A stretch of 39,293 nucleotides of DNA from Escherichia phage phiv142-3. Location: the sequence record MN187550.1. One strand, written 5' to 3'. Of the stretch, positions 2,524-32,948 are shown one piece after another. The first letter of the stretch is position 1. Each line of letters starts with the position of its first letter. Both the position numbers and the translations under genes were made by a program. Below the pieces are notes generated by a model, which was not told the DNA's origin, did not search any database, and was given only the letters and a program-made list of their open reading frames with translations.

Positions 2524-4653
2524 CTATTCCTCAATACCTAACCTGCTTGAAACCTCCGGCATAACAGTAACCTGAAGGGTTTTTGATGAATCTGTGTTTT
2601 TAATTGCTATGCTGATATTGCCAGAAGTGCTGTTATTGTTTGACACTGTTATAGAGTTTGCATCCACCCCGAGTTTCGAATAAGCATCAGCAAAACTAAG
2701 ACCAACACTTCCACCAACAACTCTATATGAACCATCAATTCTGAATGACGATATATTGTTATTGCTAACATCTCTAATTAGAACCCATATAGAAACGCCC
2801 CTGAAAACAAGGCTTGCCCCTGATGGTATTTGAAGTGATACAGTTCCTGTGGAACCGGGGGGGATACTGCCAGTATATTTAGTTCCGTGCAGATATTTCC
2901 CCGGTAGGTCTAAATACGATGTGTCTGGATGTAATAAATTATGTATATGTCTGCTATCTATGCTTCCAGACAGAACCATAGAATCATTGCCATATTCAAT
3001 TATCCTTCCACCATCGTTACTTATTGTAAGTAATCCTTTGTTTCCTTTATTGTTTCTAACAGTTATATCAGAAGAATCCAGGCGGACAATTGATATATTT
3101 TTTTCTGATCCATGACAATAATTTGATGAAATTTCACCTGTAACAAGTGACGTACATAAAATGTCTGAACTTCCATCACTGTCGCCAGTAATAGTGTTGC
3201 AGGAAATTAATGCACCATATACCAGACCTGTCGGAGATTCTCCAAATTGCTCTATAGTAATCCGTTTTGTGGTATTTGCTGATATGGTTATATTATGAAC
3301 ATCGTCAGTTTGCGATGTTACTTTGATCCTTGATGAAACGGTATTTCCAGAAATAGTAACATTACTTGTATCATCCACCCATAAATATGACGAAAACGTA
3401 TTACCTGATATGACTGAGTTACTCACCATTGAGTTCTCAAGCTCACATGAACCATAGCTATTGTTATGGTCATAATTTCCTATAATCCTTACAAATCCAT
3501 TCTGGTTAATGAAGTTGTATGATGTTGCATTTTGTCCGCCATAAGTTGAGTTATGTGATGTTTCAGCATTTGTAACGCCTATATGTTGAAAATGACCGGC
3601 ATTTACAGAATCAGGAGCAACTGATGTACACCCTATTACTTTTGTGTTTTTGACAATTCTTGAATTAGGGTCATTCTCCAAATAATAGTTTTTTGCAACA
3701 AATGCCGTAGAGTAAAAGAAACCTTCAAATCTATTAAATAAAATCTGAATATCGTCATAATCTCTTTGGTCTTCATTTGCATAGCAATAAAATGCTCTTG
3801 AAGACTCGGAGTAATCCTTGCATTTCTGAACGCCAGATAAAAGTGTTCGGATTCTGCTAGATTTTATTCTAAATCCGTTGTGAATTAACGTTGCATCACC
3901 AACTAATGTTATTGGCTTAAACAATTCAACCTTATCAAAAACAAATTCACCACCATAAAATCCAAGTATAGCCCCTTCTGGTACTGCATTAATAGCATTT
4001 TGAATTGCTACAGTATCATCTGTTATGCCGTCTCCTTTTGCACCAAAATCACGAACACTAATGGTGTCTCTCATCTTATCCTGGAACGTTCGGTACACAG
4101 CCCCAGAACCATACTGAATAAACCAACCAAAACCACCAACAACCCCGGCGATTGCAGCATCGACATAATTACGCATTGAGCGATTATTTACAGCATCCTG
4201 CTCAAGTGATGGATCTGCAAGGTTAGAAATTCTGTTTTGCTTTGCATCGTAATATTTTGCAAGCAGAGAGGGCTTCATCAATGCACGTCTGAACCACCCA
4301 AAACATTGCTGGATCAGCATCGTCAGGTAGTCAAAGGCATCTTCATGCACTTCGGGGAAAAATTTTCCCTGATTGCGAAGGTCTGTCTCCTGCACTACAT
4401 CAAGCACACGATCTATCGTAATTCGCCATCCAGTAGCAAGCGGAGACAGAAGAACCACAGAACCGCCACTATAAGTGCCCGCCCCAGTTACCGTATAACC
4501 GGTATCCAGGACCAATTCTGTTACGTTCCCGTTCAGGTCAGACACCTGAACAACCAGGTCTGATTTTCTGAAAATTCGAAAAGTATACGGAAACGATGTC
4601 GTAACGCCGTTACCGGTGTATTCGTTGTGGTCAACTTCGGTTGAGACCGTCAT
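2524..4653 (-). CDS. tailspike / tail fibre with depolymerase-like C-terminal domain
   Basis: 709 aa. N-terminal ~200 aa resembles the conserved particle-attachment domain of T7 gp17-type podovirus tail fibres (YTGNGVTTSFPYTF...); from ...VRDFGAKGDGITDDT onward it looks like a pectate-lyase-type beta-helix. The C-terminal coding DNA is clearly AT-rich. Confidence 0.75.
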   Translation of the reverse strand: MTVSTEVDHNEYTGNGVTTSFPYTFRIFRKSDLVVQVSDLNGNVTELVLDTGYTVTGAGTYSGGSVVLLSPLATGWRITIDRVLDVVQETDLRNQGKFFPEVHEDAFDYLTMLIQQCFGWFRRALMKPSLLAKYYDAKQNRISNLADPSLEQDAVNNRSMRNYVDAAIAGVVGGFGWFIQYGSGAVYRTFQDKMRDTISVRDFGAKGDGITDDTVAIQNAINAVPEGAILGFYGGEFVFDKVELFKPITLVGDATLIHNGFRIKSSRIRTLLSGVQKCKDYSESSRAFYCYANEDQRDYDDIQILFNRFEGFFYSTAFVAKNYYLENDPNSRIVKNTKVIGCTSVAPDSVNAGHFQHIGVTNAETSHNSTYGGQNATSYNFINQNGFVRIIGNYDHNNSYGSCELENSMVSNSVISGNTFSSYLWVDDTSNVTISGNTVSSRIKVTSQTDDVHNITISANTTKRITIEQFGESPTGLVYGALISCNTITGDSDGSSDILCTSLVTGEISSNYCHGSEKNISIVRLDSSDITVRNNKGNKGLLTISNDGGRIIEYGNDSMVLSGSIDSRHIHNLLHPDTSYLDLPGKYLHGTKYTGSIPPGSTGTVSLQIPSGASLVFRGVSIWVLIRDVSNNNISSFRIDGSYRVVGGSVGLSFADAYSKLGVDANSITVSNNNSTSGNISIAIKNTDSSKTLQVTVMPEVSSRLGIEE

Positions 4654-4757
4654 GTTAAATCTCCAGATAGTCGCAGCACCCGTTGCGCCGCATATCTGGT
4701 TATTCTATTACCTGAAAAACCACATATGGATAGAAAGGCTGTAAATATGAATAGATA

Positions 4758-4772
4758 TTACCTTTCAGGTAA
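4758..4772. promoter_or_regulatory. operator-like palindrome TTACCTTTCAGGTAA (site S1)
   Basis: Perfect 5-bp inverted arms TTACC/GGTAA around a 5-bp centre, in the divergent region between tailspike and the small antirepressor-like gene; flanked by palindromic TTTGCAAA. Confidence 0.6.
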
Positions 4773-4809
4773 TTTGCAAAACGTGCTGGATAGCAAACAA
4801 ATTATTTGA

Positions 4810-4829
4810 TACTGTATAAATATACAGTT
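4810..4829. promoter_or_regulatory. LexA (SOS) box TACTGTATAAATATACAGTT
   Basis: CTGT-N8-ACAG with AT-rich centre, near-identical to the E. coli LexA consensus; sits about 20 bp upstream of the ATG at 4849, inside the spacer after a TTGATA -35-like hexamer. Confidence 0.6.
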
Positions 4830-4848
4830 ATTGCATGGAGAAGATAAG

Positions 4849-5106
4849 ATGCAGCAGTATCACTATCCACTGGAAGACGGATTTACCGAAAGGATTCACA
4901 CGCCGGGAGGCGTCAGGTCACTGGTGGAAGGATCGCACTTGATGAAATTACTCCGGGATCTCGATAAGGATGGATTTAATGTCGATGGCCCACTTGCCGA
5001 ACTGACTGCACTGATTAACTACGTCACCAGCTCACAGATGTCTATGCGGGATCTGCAAACACATCTCGACTATTGTGCCGAACAATTACGAAAACAAACC
5101 AGATAA
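4849..5106 (+). CDS. small protein paralogous to the C-terminal domain of the downstream antirepressor
   Basis: 85 aa from the ATG at 4849 (GGAG 8 nt upstream); the track starts at a TTG at 4831. Residues ...LMKLLRDLDKDGFNVDGPLAELTALINYV...RDLQTH align with ...[29 protein letters not shown]...RDIQTH of the 218-aa protein. Confidence 0.55.
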   Translation: MQQYHYPLEDGFTERIHTPGGVRSLVEGSHLMKLLRDLDKDGFNVDGPLAELTALINYVTSSQMSMRDLQTHLDYCAEQLRKQTR

Positions 5107-5109
5107 GGT

Positions 5110-5152
5110 TTGCAATTACCAAATGGAGTGCTTATATTTACCTTTGCGGTAA
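5110..5152 (+). promoter_or_regulatory. promoter (-35 TTGCAA, 17-bp spacer, -10 TATATT) fused to operator S2 TTACCTTTGCGGTAA (5138-5152)
   Basis: Sigma70-like hexamers read from sequence; the last T of the -10 is the first T of the palindrome. Confidence 0.5.
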
Positions 5153-5242
5153 ATTTACATCGCACTCCTCTTGTGCCATAGTAATCGGGCACTGGCAAAA
5201 TCCAGTGCCGGGATTGGTCTCCCGGATTACTAAGTGGCGCAT

Positions 5243-5265
5243 ACCACGCCAGACGTGGTTTTTTT
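5243..5265 (+). terminator. intrinsic terminator (ACCACG-loop-CGTGGT plus T7 tract) in the antirepressor leader
   Basis: GC-rich hairpin followed by TTTTTTT; preceded by two more hairpins (about 5188-5226); about 160 nt upstream of the antirepressor ATG. Confidence 0.5.
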
Positions 5266-5423
5266 ATGCGTATAGCACAGTCATGCCAGAATTATGGTGG
5301 GCTGAATGGGGGTCCGAAAGGACGCCGGTACCACTTAGGCCGGTAAGACCAACTCCGTTCAGTTCACCACCATCTGATTGGTCTCAGCGGTGGTGATGTA
5401 ATTCGCTAAGTGGAGACGCCATC

Positions 5424-6080
5424 ATGAACGCTCAACTCATCCCCGTATTCAACGGCACTATATCTAACGAAACAGCCCTACTTTGTAATGCCCGCGATCT
5501 GCACGCTTTTTTAGGTGTTAAAAAGGTGTTTGCAGCATGGATTACAAATCGCATATCAGAATACGAATTCATTGAAAATCAAGACTATATTTTGCTTTCC
5601 AATTTGGGAAAGCAAACATCTGGTAGAGGCGGCCACAACCGCAAAGAGTACCACCTCACCCTTGATACAGCCAAAGAGCTGGCGATGGTCGAGCGTAACG
5701 AAAAAGGTCGTCAGGTGCGACGCTACTTCATTGAATGCGAGAAACGTTTAAGACAACAAGAAACAAAAGTGGAGAAGGTCTTGTCAGGCTTCATGCCCGC
5801 CATTATGGAGGCGATCAAGCTGGAAGACAAAAAAGAATACAGCGCCCCACTGAAGCCCGGCTACCGCAGCCTGATTCATTCTCCGTCTGGTGTTCTCGGC
5901 CTGACGGAGAACTCACTGCTGATGAATCTGCTGAACAAGTTACAGGAAGACGGGCACGATGTATCGGGCGCGGCAGCGGAGCTGACCACCATGTTCTGCT
6001 ACATCGTCGGTGTGAGCAAATGCCTGCGTGATATCCAGACCCACGCGGAGTACATCAACGACAAGGCAGGGTTCTTCTGA
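5424..6080 (+). CDS. antirepressor (AntA-like N-terminal domain plus C-terminal domain)
   Basis: 218 aa; N-terminal region (...[10 protein letters not shown]...[17 protein letters not shown]...) resembles phage AntA/AntB antirepressor domains; GGAG RBS about 9 nt upstream. Confidence 0.7.
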
Positions 6081-6124
6081 CGGGCGGTGGCACAGGGATG
6101 TGCCTTTAAATAATTCTGTACAGA

Positions 6125-6167
6125 TTGCAGACTGTGGGTGAATAGCGTACTATTACCTTAAAGGTAA
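6125..6167 (+). promoter_or_regulatory. promoter (-35 TTGCAG, 17 bp, -10 TACTAT) fused to operator S3 TTACCTTAAAGGTAA (6153-6167)
   Basis: Same promoter-operator fusion as at 5110-5152; the operator is immediately followed by AGGAGG and the ATG at 6180. Confidence 0.55.
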
Positions 6168-6179
6168 AGGAGGCGCGAT

Positions 6180-6347
6180 ATGACAGCGTTGAAAAATCGT
6201 ACTCAGCACAATGAACAAGCCAAGCAATGCTGGGATGTCATTGGAAAAGTTATGCTTGGCCGCGCAAGCAAAGAGCGCGACAAGGATATGGTTTACCAGA
6301 CAGGAACATCTTTCAGCGACTTCAAGGCGGCATTTCGCTCCAAATAG
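6180..6347 (+). CDS. hypothetical 55-aa protein (below the ORF-track size cut-off)
   Basis: ATG with strong AAAGGAGG RBS 7 nt upstream; translation MTALKNRTQHNEQAKQCWDVIGKVMLGRASKERDKDMVYQTGTSFSDFKAAFRSK; first gene after the operator-controlled promoter. Confidence 0.5.
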   Translation: MTALKNRTQHNEQAKQCWDVIGKVMLGRASKERDKDMVYQTGTSFSDFKAAFRSK

Positions 6348-6367
6348 AAGCACATCAGGAGTTTTCC

Positions 6368-6808
6368 TTGAAGTTTAACATTAGAATATCTAATAGTTTT
6401 CTACATGGGGAAAGCAACACCCCTTTCGCTGTAGACGGACCTTTCCTTACTGATGATGAAATAAAAATCATACAAAGTTTTTTAGAGGATGTTGCCAATG
6501 GAAGGGCGCTTGTTGGAAAAAACAAGCCCTCGTGGGTTGATGATAACCATGATAAAATTCCCGGCTCAGACAATTATGAGCAAGAGAATTATTGGCATTA
6601 TCATTGTGGGCCAACATGGTATCCAAACACATTTAAGAATTATACCATTAACTTAAATTTCAACCCTGGCGGAAGGCATTCTAATGAATGCATTCATTAT
6701 GCAAAAAATGATAATGAAATTGTCATTGTTGGATTTTCAAGAGAACACATACCTTTCCTTTCATCAGATGGAAACAACAATCCGCTTTTTAATGATGAAG
6801 AAGAATAG
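6368..6808 (+). CDS. hypothetical AT-rich protein (~146 aa), probable TTG start
   Basis: Long open frame in strongly AT-rich DNA (part of ORF 6227..6808); no in-frame ATG after the upstream gene ends; AGGAG 6 nt upstream of the TTG at 6368; followed by an intrinsic terminator. Confidence 0.45.
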   Translation: MKFNIRISNSFLHGESNTPFAVDGPFLTDDEIKIIQSFLEDVANGRALVGKNKPSWVDDNHDKIPGSDNYEQENYWHYHCGPTWYPNTFKNYTINLNFNPGGRHSNECIHYAKNDNEIVIVGFSREHIPFLSSDGNNNPLFNDEEE

Positions 6809-6830
6809 CCCGCGCTGCGGGCTTTTTTGT
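6807..6830 (+). terminator. intrinsic terminator (GCCCGC-loop-GCGGGC plus T6)
   Basis: GC hairpin overlapping the stop codon, followed by TTTTTTGT. Confidence 0.6.
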
Positions 6831-6900
6831 GGACGAAACAAAAGTCAGTGCTACACTCATTGACGCCACATTGAGGTGGCTTATAGATGGAAATTTCACA

Positions 6901-7062
6901 ATGAAAAAAGCATTTGCTGCACTGTTCGTTTTGTTGTCTCTGGTAGCTTCAACTCAGGCCTTTGCCGGTCGTTGTCAGCACGACAGCGACACTGCCGCTG
7001 ACGGCTCCCGCTGCGGTGGGCGTTCTGCGGATTCCCGCCCGGGCGGCGGTGGCATTCGTTAA
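6901..7062 (+). CDS. small secreted protein (signal peptide plus ~30-aa Gly/Arg/Cys-containing mature peptide)
   Basis: Internal ATG of ORF 6829..7062: MKKAFAALFVLLSLVASTQAFA followed by GRCQHDSDTAADGSRCGGRSADSRPGGGGIR; own TTGACG-N17-ATAGAT promoter-like sequence at 6860-6888 with no TTACC-N5-GGTAA site. Confidence 0.45.
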   Translation: MKKAFAALFVLLSLVASTQAFAGRCQHDSDTAADGSRCGGRSADSRPGGGGIR

Positions 7063-7068
7063 AAACAA

Positions 7069-7097
7069 GGCCGCGAAAGCGGCCTGTGACATGTCAC
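7069..7097. terminator. hairpin GGCCGC-GAAA-GCGGCC plus adjacent palindrome GTGACATGTCAC at a convergent gene junction
   Basis: On the minus strand the hairpin is followed by TTGTTTTT, so it can terminate the long virion operon; the 12-bp palindrome (7086-7097) overlaps the stop codon of the membrane-protein gene. Confidence 0.5.
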
Positions 7098-7390
7098 GTC
7101 CCTTTTCTGAATGATAGCCATTCGAAAAATGATGACATTCCACCGCAGACAATAGCAAAGATGATCCCACCAAAGAAGAGAAGGCCAGCCTGCCACCACT
7201 CCCACCGCCATACATCCACAGCGCCAACCATACCAACAATCGCTCCAACAAATGGAATATAGCTCACGATGAAAGCAATGGGGGCTGCAATTATCCAGTG
7301 CAATCCCCACCATGATTCAAGCCCAGCCATAATTGCTGCCAACTGAAAAAGACCAACGACGATATAAACAATGAATCCTATAGCTTGCAT
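7094..7390 (-). CDS. small multi-TM membrane protein at the end of the virion operon
   Basis: 98 aa from the ATG at 7390 (AGGTGA RBS 4 nt upstream); the track ORF extends to a TTG at 7450; about 4 hydrophobic helices rich in Gly/Ala/Ile/Trp. Confidence 0.5.
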   Translation of the reverse strand: MQAIGFIVYIVVGLFQLAAIMAGLESWWGLHWIIAAPIAFIVSYIPFVGAIVGMVGAVDVWRWEWWQAGLLFFGGIIFAIVCGGMSSFFEWLSFRKGT

Positions 7391-7586
7391 GTAGTCACCT
7401 AATTTACCCAGTAAAAATAAGAGGCCTCCCCTCAATAAGGCTTGCAACAAGAACTACTCCCTGCACAACAAAGATGAACCAGCAAATAGCTTGAGTCTGA
7501 GGGTTAAGAAAATATTTGTAGCGGTCAATAAATAACAATACACCAGAAATTATCACACTCAAAATAATTAAAAACACAACACTTCC

Positions 7587-10061
7587 TTATTGCGGAGTGA
7601 CATCCTGTGGTCGCCACCAGTATGTCTGGTTAAACTCTTTCTTCGAACGTTGCTCCATTTTACGCAAATAACCTGGTGAAAAATACTCCTGCATCTGGTT
7701 AAAGATCATGTGATCGAGAGCCGCCTTTAAGTACCAGAGATTCGCACCTGGCATCAGACCTTTCCCCAGCTTAACCAGATCACCACCAGTCTGCTCATTC
7801 TTCCCTTCCACAGCATTTAACGGTATGCCCTGAGCAATCTTCACTACGTCATCAACCAGACCAGCTACCGGGCCAAGCATCGACGCCAGTGCGCCGCTTC
7901 CGTACCTAGTGTGATCTGACAATAAAAAGTCACCGTAAAGGCCAAGACCACCACCTTTCAGTAGAGCACCAAGCCAAAATTTAGCAGCATCTTCTCCTGT
8001 CATCTCGCGAGGATTACGACCAGACGCAAGGTCGTTAAGTTGCTGCGACAAAGCGCCAAGAATGGTCGTACTGGCAATAAACGTCGCAATATATGCCGCA
8101 CGCCCACCAGCAGATGGAATACCCATAGCGCGTGACCAGTGACGCATAACCACCGAGATAGGGAACGATTTAAACAGGAAAACACTTCTCGTTAATTCAC
8201 CTTTCCATGTTCCACGCTGAATACCAGAACCGGTTATCAGTTGCTCACGTGCTCCCGGTGTAATAACAGCCATATCAACTTCTTCAGTTACGGCACCGAG
8301 CAGTTTACGCATTGCCTCAAATTTCACGCGTTCAGGCTCACCAAGATGTTTAACTGCTGAATCAGGGATACGCATAATGCTTTCCGGTGTCAGCATCGTA
8401 TTATTGCCGTTCCCCCAGTCCTCCTGTTGAGCCAGCTTCCATACGCTCCAGTCTGTGTCAGTAATCCCTTTGCTTTTCAGGATACGAAAATCAGAATCAT
8501 CGAGGCTACGAAGGTCTGGTGTCCGTGACACTACTTCTCCCAGGCTTCCCATCATGGTTACGCCATAGGCGCGCTTGTGCGCATCTGACCATGCTGTAAG
8601 CCCACTGGCACGCATTACCGCCGTTGCAGCCCAACGAGACACAGACGGCCCCATATTATCCATCGCCCAGCGGTTAACGCTGCCAAGTAGAGATTCCATC
8701 GCTAGACCAGCGCGGCGCGCCCGCGCAAGTTCTGTACGGTTCGTTGGGTCCATAGCTTCAAGCTGGTTGCGGAATAACTGGTTCATTGGAAGGTTGGTCA
8801 CCTTCGCAGACAGATACATGGTTCCAAGATCAGAGAACGATGACAGCAACGCGGATCCGAGTCTGCTGGCAACCAGCCAGTTGCGGATATTGTCAGACCA
8901 TCGCGCGATGTGCGGATTCGCTACAGGCTGTGTCTTTCCGGAAATAAAGTTGTACAGATTCTCTGTGTTGTTCGCCAGCCGCTCGACTTTACCGGTTTTA
9001 CTCGGGTTAGCTGTTGCCGTTTCTGCCTTCACCTGATCAAGAAGAGAGCGGAAAACATGATCGGGGTTTGGGCCATATGTTTCCACCAGTGCAATATCTT
9101 TACTGATACCTTCCAGGTGACCGACCATGATTTCCCATAGAGAGCGATCGCCATAAAGTTGTTGATATTGCAGATAGGAATCTGCATCTTTGAAATGTAT
9201 CTGTCGTGATGCATTACCACGGTTAGCACGTGCGCCGGAAATTCGCATTCCGGTATCAGTAAGCTTATTCAGCCCACCAGTAGCGATCGTGTTATAAGCC
9301 TCTCCAAGAAATGAAGACAACTCGGCATCGTTCATCAGTTGTCCATCGGCTCGGATATAATATTTGCGATCCAGCTTACCTATAACATCGCTAACCCACT
9401 TATCCTTTGATACCGCCCCAACCTTTTCCATAGAATGATGTTGAGGGATCCCCCAGTTTTCGAGATAGCCAATGTCCCCACCAGCATCATTAAACCGGCG
9501 GCGCAGTAGCTCTGTCACTTCTCTCCACGCCTTAGCACCTTTTCTTGCTTTAGCATTGCCAGTATTTTGCCCTCGCATTTCATATACCAGGTCACGCACG
9601 CCAGCTTCATCTTCAAACAGGCCAAAAAAGCGAGGATCAACTGCTTCAAATGCCTCCTGCAATTGACTCAATGCATAATCACGAGTGGCTTTTGTTCTGG
9701 ATTCAACAGAGAGGAAATTCGATTTACCGTCTGCATTAAAAGCAATAGTACGGTTAAGAGCGCCAAGTTTCCCATCAGCCCCTTGATAGCTATTGATAAA
9801 TTTATCCAATCTCTGACGTGCGGCTATAGTGAGGGCCACACGACGTTTCTTTAATGCCGCTTCTCGCTGTAATTCTTCAGATGCCAATTGTGCTGCACGA
9901 TATAGCCGCTCTGATTCGGAAAGTTGTCTCCACGACATCGGGTCATCACGAGCAATGGAGCGCATATTTCGATAAATGCGGTCTTCAATGTTCTGTATTT
10001 CTCGCGCCGTTAACGTGCGCTGCGCCGCCTGCTGGACCGCTTGTATACATTCCTGTCTCAT
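7587..10061 (-). CDS. large internal virion / ejection protein (T7 gp16-like position, distal part)
   Basis: 824 aa; position and size within the podovirus-like structural operon; Gly-rich hydrophobic C-terminal region. Confidence 0.6.
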   Translation of the reverse strand: MRQECIQAVQQAAQRTLTAREIQNIEDRIYRNMRSIARDDPMSWRQLSESERLYRAAQLASEELQREAALKKRRVALTIAARQRLDKFINSYQGADGKLGALNRTIAFNADGKSNFLSVESRTKATRDYALSQLQEAFEAVDPRFFGLFEDEAGVRDLVYEMRGQNTGNAKARKGAKAWREVTELLRRRFNDAGGDIGYLENWGIPQHHSMEKVGAVSKDKWVSDVIGKLDRKYYIRADGQLMNDAELSSFLGEAYNTIATGGLNKLTDTGMRISGARANRGNASRQIHFKDADSYLQYQQLYGDRSLWEIMVGHLEGISKDIALVETYGPNPDHVFRSLLDQVKAETATANPSKTGKVERLANNTENLYNFISGKTQPVANPHIARWSDNIRNWLVASRLGSALLSSFSDLGTMYLSAKVTNLPMNQLFRNQLEAMDPTNRTELARARRAGLAMESLLGSVNRWAMDNMGPSVSRWAATAVMRASGLTAWSDAHKRAYGVTMMGSLGEVVSRTPDLRSLDDSDFRILKSKGITDTDWSVWKLAQQEDWGNGNNTMLTPESIMRIPDSAVKHLGEPERVKFEAMRKLLGAVTEEVDMAVITPGAREQLITGSGIQRGTWKGELTRSVFLFKSFPISVVMRHWSRAMGIPSAGGRAAYIATFIASTTILGALSQQLNDLASGRNPREMTGEDAAKFWLGALLKGGGLGLYGDFLLSDHTRYGSGALASMLGPVAGLVDDVVKIAQGIPLNAVEGKNEQTGGDLVKLGKGLMPGANLWYLKAALDHMIFNQMQEYFSPGYLRKMEQRSKKEFNQTYWWRPQDVTPQ

Positions 10062-31978: not shown

Positions 31979-32209
31979 TCATGAGTAGAAGAAGTATGCC
32001 AGTTCTGCTTTTGAGCGCAGCCATTGTCTTGATTTACAGGCTTTAAAAAGCCCATCCATCAATACCTTACCTGGCATTTTGCGCTTACCTGTTAAGTGAG
32101 TCTGGATATAGTGACTCGTCGTTCCGGCTTCCTGTGCGAAGGCTTCACGCTCATCCGGAGTAAGTGCAAGCCAGTGCTTTTTGAAATCGAAATGTCCGTT
32201 ATCGCTCAT
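31979..32209 (-). CDS. Cro-like HTH regulator
   Basis: 76 aa with HTH-like segment ...REAFAQEAGTTSHYIQTHLTGKR...; divergent from the repressor gene across the operator cluster. Confidence 0.55.
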   Translation of the reverse strand: MSDNGHFDFKKHWLALTPDEREAFAQEAGTTSHYIQTHLTGKRKMPGKVLMDGLFKACKSRQWLRSKAELAYFFYS

Positions 32210-32234: not shown

Positions 32235-32308
32235 ATAATAAATATTCACCTATAAGGTAACAAAAATCAAGGATAGTTACCCATGAGGTGCATTTACCTG
32301 TTGGGTAA
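32235..32308. promoter_or_regulatory. divergent switch region with three operator palindromes and the cro-side promoter
   Basis: O1 TCACCTATAAGGTAA (32246-32260), O2 TTACCCATGAGGTGC (32277-32291), O3 TTACCTGTTGGGTAA (32294-32308). Minus-strand promoter -35 TTGTTA (32263-32258) and -10 TATTAT (32240-32235) with O1 inside the spacer. Confidence 0.6.
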
Positions 32309-32363: not shown

Positions 32364-32948
32364 ATGAAAAGTATCCAGGACGTCCGCAGGCAAAATCTCA
32401 ACGACTTGATCGACCGTGAATTCAATGGTGTTCAGACGCGGATGGCTGAAAAACTTGGAACTCAGGCAAATCTGGTAAACCGCTGGGCTCTTGGCAAGAA
32501 GGTTATCGGCGACCAGGTTGCGCGAAAAATTGAAGCTGCCGCCAATAAACCCCGTAACTGGCTTGATATCGATCGCTCGCTTTCTCAGGAAGGTTTTCAG
32601 CCTGTCGGCCCGAGTGATATAGGTCAGCTGGCTGCTCACAACCTGGAACGCTGGATGAGCGAAAGCCGCGACCTTTCAACGCAGGGAAAACTACACCGCG
32701 CATCCGGCGTCGCCCAGGTGACAATCAGCCGCCTGTTAAACAATGAGGTCAGCGTTTCCATTTCCACCCTGGAGAATGTTGCATCCGCATTCGGGCGTCA
32801 TGGCTATGAATTACTGATTCACCCGCACGACCCTGCGACTATCAACTATGACCGCTCGCGCTACGCATTGTTACCCGAAACCGAGAAAGCAAAGATCGAA
32901 AGTTACATTGAATTTGTCATCAACCAGAACGAAAAAAACAAACAATAA
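32364..32948 (+). CDS. immunity repressor, tandem-HTH type without a recognisable autopeptidase domain
   Basis: 194 aa; two XRE-like HTH segments (...QTRMAEKLGTQANLVNRWALGKK... and ...LHRASGVAQVTISRLLNNEV...); no Ala-Gly/Ser...Lys S24-like motifs seen; divergent from cro-like gene. Confidence 0.65.
   Translation: MKSIQDVRRQNLNDLIDREFNGVQTRMAEKLGTQANLVNRWALGKKVIGDQVARKIEAAANKPRNWLDIDRSLSQEGFQPVGPSDIGQLAAHNLERWMSESRDLSTQGKLHRASGVAQVTISRLLNNEVSVSISTLENVASAFGRHGYELLIHPHDPATINYDRSRYALLPETEKAKIESYIEFVINQNEKNKQ

Follow-up and report, generated by a model that had tools for sequence, protein, structure and literature searches.

Why should a phage carry two antirepressor genes side by side, and which of them answers to DNA damage? 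The question is raised by positions 4,758 to 6,080 of Escherichia phage phiv142-3 (MN187550.1; the window is the whole stretch of DNA analysed, 39,293 nucleotides), where a LexA box is followed by a gene for an 85-amino-acid (aa) protein and then by a gene for a 218-aa AntA-like antirepressor. An earlier reading of the letters alone (the sequence-only reading) took the box and both genes for one SOS-inducible module directed against an immunity repressor without an autocleavage domain. We consider it probable that the region holds two independently controlled antirepressor units acting on one repressor (Rep): an SOS switch of the type found in phage SPC32H, and a cassette in which a fusion antirepressor is guarded by a C4-type antisense RNA. 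The window is that of an epsilon15-like (genus Uetakevirus) E. coli phage; megablast of positions 4600-6200 matched epsilon15-like podophages, with HEMP4, TL-2011b, ZX5 and phiV10 at 90-94% identity over parts of the query and Salmonella relatives matching its first 500 bases only.

The small gene, ant (4849-5106, plus strand; phrog_450), lies just downstream of the box as had been proposed, with its ATG at 4849 rather than 4850. By homology, its product is an already characterised antirepressor of the SPC32H type: a search of solved structures returned one match, PDB 5D50 chain E, 'Anti-repressor protein' (E = 1.4e-46, 83 of 85 residues), and SPC32H Ant is 87% and epsilon15 gp19 83% identical to it. 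The SPC32H record annotates ant in the syntenic location, where it diverges from the tailspike gene, and the small Ant is the only Ant in SPC32H and epsilon15. The sequence-only reading could not place this protein in a described family; it is an orthologue of SPC32H Ant. A profile search of 5.8 billion proteins gave 264 clusters, nearly all of them stand-alone Enterobacterales proteins of 85-86 aa without a Pfam family. The profile searches that the earlier reading had suggested for both proteins gave a divided result: AntA (PF08346) matches the 218-aa protein and has no match in the 85-aa protein, neither antirepressor has a Pfam or PHROG match to Tum or DinI (E <= 1 / 0.01; no direct comparison with Tum was run), and NCBIfam and PADLOC returned nothing for either. 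Among Klebsiella phages, the stand-alone Ant (BUCT711, 3146-3406) carries a 12-residue stretch typical of fused C-domains, which suggests recombination between free and fused forms.

The near-consensus LexA box reported earlier is borne out. The box, TACTGTATAAATATACAGTT (4810-4829), has 2 mismatches to the consensus TACTGTATATATATACAGTA and is the only 20-mer in the 39 kb that matches with three mismatches or fewer; none of 100 shuffled sequences contained a match. Perfect CTGT-N8-ACAG occurs at three sites in the window, with an A+T-rich centre only at 4810-4829. Five relatives, SPC32H and epsilon15 among them, have a LexA box at the equal position, and the box of the window aligns column for column with that of SPC32H. 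In the ant region, SPC32N differs from SPC32H by a single base, which changes the right arm of the LexA box from ACAG to AAAG. SPC32N is reported, by Kim and Ryu in 2013, to be two bases away from SPC32H, the change in the LexA box making Ant constitutive. A LexA-like site with one mismatch, CTGTAAATATGAATAG (4739-4754, CTGT-N8-ATAG), stands beside the first of the operators described below; relatives do not share it, and the match is probably due to chance.

The repressor gene, rep (32364-32948, plus strand, 194 aa), had been read as encoding two helix-turn-helix (HTH) units and no S24 peptidase, and both parts of that reading stand: Pfam places HTH_3 in two stretches, and Peptidase_S24 was not found in Pfam or NCBIfam. 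Rep matches PDB 5D50 chain A, 'Repressor', over residues 1-190 (E = 4e-42), and its C-terminal half matches 5D4Z, an HTH-type domain (E = 4e-20); it is 100% identical to the phiV10 Rep and 99-100% identical among all E. coli relatives. A cro-like gene (31979-32209, minus strand, phrog_35) diverges from rep, and two Rep operators (32246-32260 and 32294-32308) lie between them. Palindromes of this type, TTACC-N5-GGTAA, number 15 in the window against 0.7 expected (starts at 1787, 4758, 5138, 6153, 23656, 26454, 26472, 29902, 29964, 31909, 32246, 32294, 33006, 33068 and 39129) and very likely mark the phage's Rep regulon, being the operators to which Rep binds. Two copies lie directly 3' of rep, and several are 18, 48 or 62 bp apart, a pair spacing that would suit a tetrameric Rep. 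Equivalent palindromes in the epsilon15 GenBank record, beside the repressor gene and upstream of gp19, are annotated 'repressor; lysogeny'. In the region of interest, TTACCTTTCAGGTAA (4758-4772) precedes the LexA box by 38 nt, in the interval from which the tailspike gene and ant diverge, and is conserved in all relatives; TTACCTTTGCGGTAA (5138-5152) forms the left end of the RNA cassette, its arms invariant and its spacer variable in six phages; and TTACCTTAAAGGTAA (6153-6167) lies just upstream of the cargo gene at 6180.

Since the 85-aa protein is orthologous to SPC32H Ant and the repressor to SPC32H Rep, the route from LexA to antirepressor to repressor that had been suggested for induction holds in outline, and it is a system already described. 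The SPC32H Rep-Ant system is reportedly the work of Kim and Ryu in J Virol in 2013 and of Kim and colleagues in PNAS in 2016 (PDB 5D50, 5D4Z). Shared with SPC32H are Ant (87% identity), an orthologous Rep (42%) with the two-domain layout and without S24, the position of the LexA box, the divergence of ant from the tailspike gene and the type of operator palindrome. The window phage differs in its host, E. coli, and in its strongly diverged Rep; moreover, SPC32H ant stands directly before virion genes, whereas here a second, RNA-controlled antirepressor cassette and cargo genes are inserted.

By orthology with the SPC32H system, in which the steps were shown by experiment and structure, the first unit (4758-5106) would operate as follows: LexA on 4810-4829 would hold ant off in the lysogen; DNA damage would remove LexA, so that the 85-aa Ant is made; and Ant would bind Rep and remove it from the TTACC-N5-GGTAA operators, Rep being predicted to act as a tetramer and to be unable to cleave itself. 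For Salmonella phages of this kind, a review (with reference to Kim and Ryu 2013) states that the self-cleavage of LexA permits Ant synthesis and that Ant inactivates the repressor through protein-protein contact. According to another paper, which summarises the structural work, Rep on DNA is a tetramer that is broken up when an Ant tetramer binds two Rep dimers.

The 317-bp spacer between the two genes yields three Rfam matches, all on the plus strand, and two of these lie above their gathering scores. An IsrK-like RNA (RF01394; 5189-5265; 67.7 bits, gathering score 50) ends, in a terminator scan, with an intrinsic terminator (5243-5265) composed of a stem at 5243-5259 and a following run of seven T. 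A C4-type antisense RNA (RF01695; 5290-5374; 61.2 bits, gathering score 45) is matched over its full length, 1-87. A promoter-like site found by consensus scan, TTTACA-17-CATAGT with a TG before it (5154-5182, plus strand), is conserved in relatives and ends 7 nt before 5189; it would serve as the promoter of the cassette. The antisense sites of C4 are CCACTTAG (5331-5338), located in the hairpin 2 loop, and AGACCAA (5346-5352), which is single-stranded. These sites, of 8 nt and 7 nt, are exact complements of two target pairs on the plus strand: the upstream copies within the IsrK-like RNA (TTGGTCT at 5214-5220 and CTAAGTGG at 5230-5237) and a downstream pair at 5378-5415 (TTGGTCT at 5378-5384 and CTAAGTGG at 5406-5413). 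The last of these overlaps the Shine-Dalgarno sequence GGAG (5412-5415), 8 nt before the ATG of the 218-aa gene at 5424. In the c4 system of P1/P7 the elements are laid out likewise, as a1/b1 - a'/b' - a2/b2. Pairing between C4 and its targets was judged by complementarity at the level of these motifs; RNAduplex energies for the whole C4 against the targets did not separate cognate from non-cognate combinations, the program opening the C4 stem. In the minimum-energy fold of the read-through RNA (5189-5440), the IsrK-borne sites pair with the C4 sites in cis (z = -4.7), a prediction that fits a decoy role. Downstream of C4, the segment GCGGTGGTGAT (5386-5397) looks like the 5' arm (5294-5303) of its outer stem and is able to pair with the 3' arm TTCACCACCA (5363-5373); the predicted read-through fold uses this alternative pairing, in a way reminiscent of the Gifsy-1 locus, for which two conformers have been described.

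The proposed operation of the second unit (about 5138-6080) is that the promoter beside the Rep operator makes the IsrK-like RNA, most transcripts ending at its own terminator, and that read-through produces the C4-type RNA together with the mRNA of the 218-aa protein. Through its exposed segments C4 would then bind TTGGTCT and CTAAGTGG, which shortly precede the start codon; with the Shine-Dalgarno sequence covered by the second of these pairings, the large antirepressor would not be translated. The IsrK-like RNA, with its second copies of both targets, could act as a decoy for C4. By analogy with P1 and P7, the cassette would constitute a second immunity (anti-immunity) system that varies between otherwise homoimmune phages.

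Comparison of six phages (the window, HEMP4, phiV10, TL-2011b, ZX5 and the Enterobacter phage Tyrion) bears on this proposal. The IsrK/C4 cassette is present in all five relatives of this set, and the two RNAs are absent in SPC32H, epsilon15 and Klebsiella phage BUCT711. The C4 fold is kept in the six, with two compensatory pairs, and four specificity combinations occur over the two sites: TCT with AGTGG in the window, GCG with AGTGG in HEMP4, GCG with AAAGG in phiV10, TL-2011b and ZX5, and TCT with CAAAGG in Tyrion. C4 segment, upstream copy and downstream copy co-vary, with an exact match at both sites in five of the six phages; the exception is Tyrion, in which the upstream (IsrK-like) copy of site a has an exact run of 5 nt, or a pairing of 9 nt if one G-U is allowed. 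In non-cognate combinations of C4 and target the match is lost. Because the E. coli phages share a Rep that is 99-100% identical and differ in C4 specificity, the situation of one main repressor specificity with differing antisense specificities resembles that of P1 and P7. In ZX5 a coding sequence annotated 'ash family protein' (3604-3717) sits on the C4 RNA; a stop breaks this frame in the window, relatives do not conserve it, and the annotation probably mistakes an RNA gene for a protein-coding one.

The gene under this proposed control (5424-6080, plus strand; phrog_377, 'anti-repressor Ant') encodes the 218-aa protein, in which the AntA domain suspected earlier is found at residues 22-92 (PF08346; E = 4e-26, 91.8 bits against a gathering score of 27) and is followed by an Ant-like C-domain at 137-213. 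The C-terminal 80 residues match 5D50 chain E (6.5e-14). Paralogy between the small protein and this C-terminus had been proposed over about 60 residues; the paralogy holds and the stretch is longer, residues 2-75 of the small Ant aligning with residues 137-210 over 74 residues (43% identity, E = 6e-21). Between stand-alone and fused forms, 22 of 85 columns are invariant. By sequence comparison the 218-aa protein is the derivative of the two, a fusion of a shuffled AntA module with a diverged copy of the small Ant.

Both halves of the protein recur in other company. Relatives with Bro-N as the N-domain (ZX5 and TL-2011b gp46) have a C-domain that is at least 93% identical, and in Tyrion the figure is 75%; the gp42 protein of TL-2011b has an Ant-like C-domain after a P22_AR_N N-domain and is encoded within a P22-type arc-sar-ant unit. 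This third antirepressor unit of TL-2011b (6525-7709), of the P22 immI type, comprises an arc-like gene, a sar RNA (44.8 bits) and the P22_AR_N protein, which ends in an epsilon15-type Ant domain. The AntA N-domain occurs in an Stx2 phage, with 81% identity over residues 1-129, joined to P22_AR_C. In the Stx2 phage WGPS6 (2365-3125), an RNA of the sRNA-Xcc1 family (69.3 bits) precedes an AntA + P22_AR_C antirepressor and may represent a further case of an antirepressor gene guarded by an RNA encoded ahead of it.

The C-domain most likely gives the 218-aa protein its affinity for the resident Rep, and the main argument for such a target is co-occurrence: 34 of 50,697 phage records contain the Ant-like domain in free or fused form and 35 contain this Rep type, from the same host genera and in the same numbers. 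The best-surviving alternative, which we regard as possible but improbable, is that the large protein spares the resident Rep and is an anti-immunity weapon against other epsilon15-like Rep variants, or is directed to DNA through AntA, with C4 mainly defending the lysogen against superinfection by related phages. In favour of this, the C-domain of the large protein shares only 43% identity with the small Ant but at least 93% among E. coli relatives, regardless of the N-domain; C4 specificities vary in phages with the same Rep, as befits immunity between phages; and the annotators of phiV10 labelled its large gene 'putative anti-immunity protein'. Strict co-occurrence of the Ant-like domain with this Rep type speaks for the resident Rep as target, as does the 99-100% identity of Rep among the E. 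coli relatives, which makes it the obvious one; and SPC32H Ant is 87% alike although its Rep is 42% alike, so the fold tolerates divergence.

Less probable still, and in our view unlikely, is the single SOS operon of the sequence-only reading, in which the small protein would be an accessory paralogue of the 'real' antirepressor encoded by the 218-aa gene. Both genes are on the plus strand, and no intrinsic terminator is predicted between the ant stop (5106) and 5243, so LexA-controlled transcripts must run into the cassette; for Gifsy-1 it is documented that the IsrK terminator lets some transcription through. However, it is the small protein that has the solved complex with Rep and that is the sole Ant of SPC32H and epsilon15, phages with the small gene only. 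Between the two genes, moreover, lie a separate Rep operator, a promoter-like site, the IsrK-like RNA with its terminator, and the C4 RNA that is antisense to the ribosome-binding site of the large gene. In TL-2011b, an insert of about 900 bp separates the small gene from the cassette and the palindrome moves with the cassette, which (about 5138-6080) is a self-contained, separate unit. In phiV10 the large gene is frameshifted: the Bro-N antirepressor p23 (3820-4499) is cut inside its Ant-like C-domain, the tiny open reading frame p22 is its out-of-frame remainder, and the gene is probably a pseudogene. A further reading, that the large protein's C-domain joins the tetramer of the small Ant and poisons or recruits it rather than binding Rep, is very improbable. 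Ant is described as a tetramer, and 22 of 85 columns are invariant between the two forms; against this reading, several functional relatives lack the large gene or have a broken copy, and the C-domain behind P22_AR_N in the classical arc-sar-ant unit of TL-2011b points to a direct antirepressor role.

Several observations weigh against two independently controlled units acting on one Rep. Rep is only 42% identical to that of SPC32H, and with a C-domain at just 43% identity to the small Ant the target of the large protein could be another Rep variant. The frameshift in phiV10 implies that the large gene is dispensable. A sigma-70 scan for the ant promoter found no -35/-10 pair of at least 9/12; the best guess, tentative and weak, is TAGCAA-18-TATAAA, with its -10 element inside the LexA box. 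The third Rfam match in the spacer, c4-a1b1 (RF03163; 5176-5228, plus strand), scores 39.9 bits, below its gathering score of 46.7. No leader frame of the icd or orf45 type is open over C4 with a conserved start in the six phages, so the coupling step of P1 and Gifsy-1 is not transferable. For Gifsy-1, the authors conclude that IsrK acts by a structural switch at orf45's ribosome-binding site rather than by C4-like titration (Hershko-Shalev et al. 2016). Finally, LexA binding, Ant-Rep binding, RNA processing and the translational block are read here from homology and complementarity.

The two units may also be coupled through RNA. Because no terminator is predicted between the ant stop and the cassette, the SOS-induced ant mRNA would carry the IsrK-like a1/b1 copies in its 3' untranslated region (UTR) and end at the IsrK terminator. 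We offer as a conjecture, with more doubt than confidence, that a surge of such transcripts, once LexA is cleaved, titrates C4 and unlocks translation of the 218-aa protein as a feed-forward commitment step, and that the four C4 types define heteroimmunity groups of the P1/P7 style within Uetakevirus. If this were true, DNA damage would fire a fast small Ant and then an RNA-gated second Ant with the same Rep-binding domain.

The cassette has clear counterparts among known systems. Like the immI locus of P1 and P7 (c4 - icd - ant), it has a C4-family RNA and its target on one transcript, two antisense segments with target copies upstream (a1/b1) and downstream (a2/b2), a downstream target over a ribosome-binding site, an antirepressor as the regulated gene, and a specificity that varies among phages with a common main repressor. 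It differs in that there is no icd-like leader, the target covering the Shine-Dalgarno sequence of the antirepressor itself; in that the role of upstream target copy falls to an IsrK-type RNA that has a terminator of its own; and in that the effector domain of the antirepressor is unrelated to P1 Ant. The Gifsy-1 series isrK - orf45/STnc1160 - anrP has the same order of an IsrK with a leaky terminator, a C4-like stable RNA and an antirepressor-like gene, with IsrK complementary to the downstream RNA; here, however, there is no conserved equivalent of orf45, and the cassette has as neighbours a Rep operator and an ant gene under LexA control. Translation of anrP in Gifsy-1 increases more than 100-fold when IsrK is provided in trans (Hershko-Shalev et al. 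2016). The IsrK-C4 system is also found in P4, P1, P7 and N15.

N15 is the closest precedent for the combination of units. One phage there contains both an SOS-controlled small antirepressor (the LexA-controlled antC) and a separate, RNA-controlled locus of the AntA type, immA (antA-icd-antB, with a small processed RNA), and the AntA Pfam domain is common to N15 and the window; in N15, however, the loci are apart and their proteins unrelated, whereas here they are adjacent and have a common effector domain. With 186 Tum and the Gifsy antirepressors GfoA and GftA (the sequence-only reading had likened the system to 186 Tum and the Gifsy prophages), the first unit shares its logic, LexA repressing a small antirepressor of a non-cleavable repressor; the functional analogy is sound, but for relatedness no sequence relation of the 85-aa protein was detected in Pfam or PHROGs. 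The region as a whole is an ordinary combination of known parts. Three features may be new, in a modest way: an adjacency that places IsrK-type decoy sites in the 3' UTR of an SOS-induced ant mRNA, the reuse of the Ant domain behind three N-domains, and the existence of several C4 specificities alongside one Rep.

The region is flanked by the tailspike gene (2524-4653, minus strand), which diverges from it, and by a cargo pair (6180-6808) of a 55-aa gene starting at 6180 (phrog_8607) and a 146-aa gene with a likely TTG start at 6368 (phrog_5954), neither with a match in Pfam, NCBIfam or PADLOC. This cargo slot, directly preceded by a Rep operator, varies among relatives and is occupied in TL-2011b by a YafO-family toxin. 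The 1.4-kb module occurs whole in 79 of 5,426 complete E. coli genomes at 98-99% identity. Among the best 15 full-length matches listed, of these 79 genomes, RefSeq names the 85-aa gene 'hypothetical protein' and the 218-aa gene 'phage antirepressor Ant' or 'antA/AntB antirepressor family protein'; the 85-aa gene is 'hypothetical protein' in the phiV10 and epsilon15 records too.

The finding thus matters mostly for annotation: a structurally characterised SOS antirepressor is listed as hypothetical, and the IsrK-like and C4 RNAs beside it are unannotated and, in one relative, mis-called as protein. For the biology of the group, epsilon15-like coliphages appear to have a bipartite immunity like that of P1 and P7, in which a common repressor is combined with an RNA-based second immunity of several specificities. 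The repressor-binding domain of Ant, as a plug-in behind AntA, Bro-N and P22_AR_N, would offer a simple system for swaps of antirepressor specificity.

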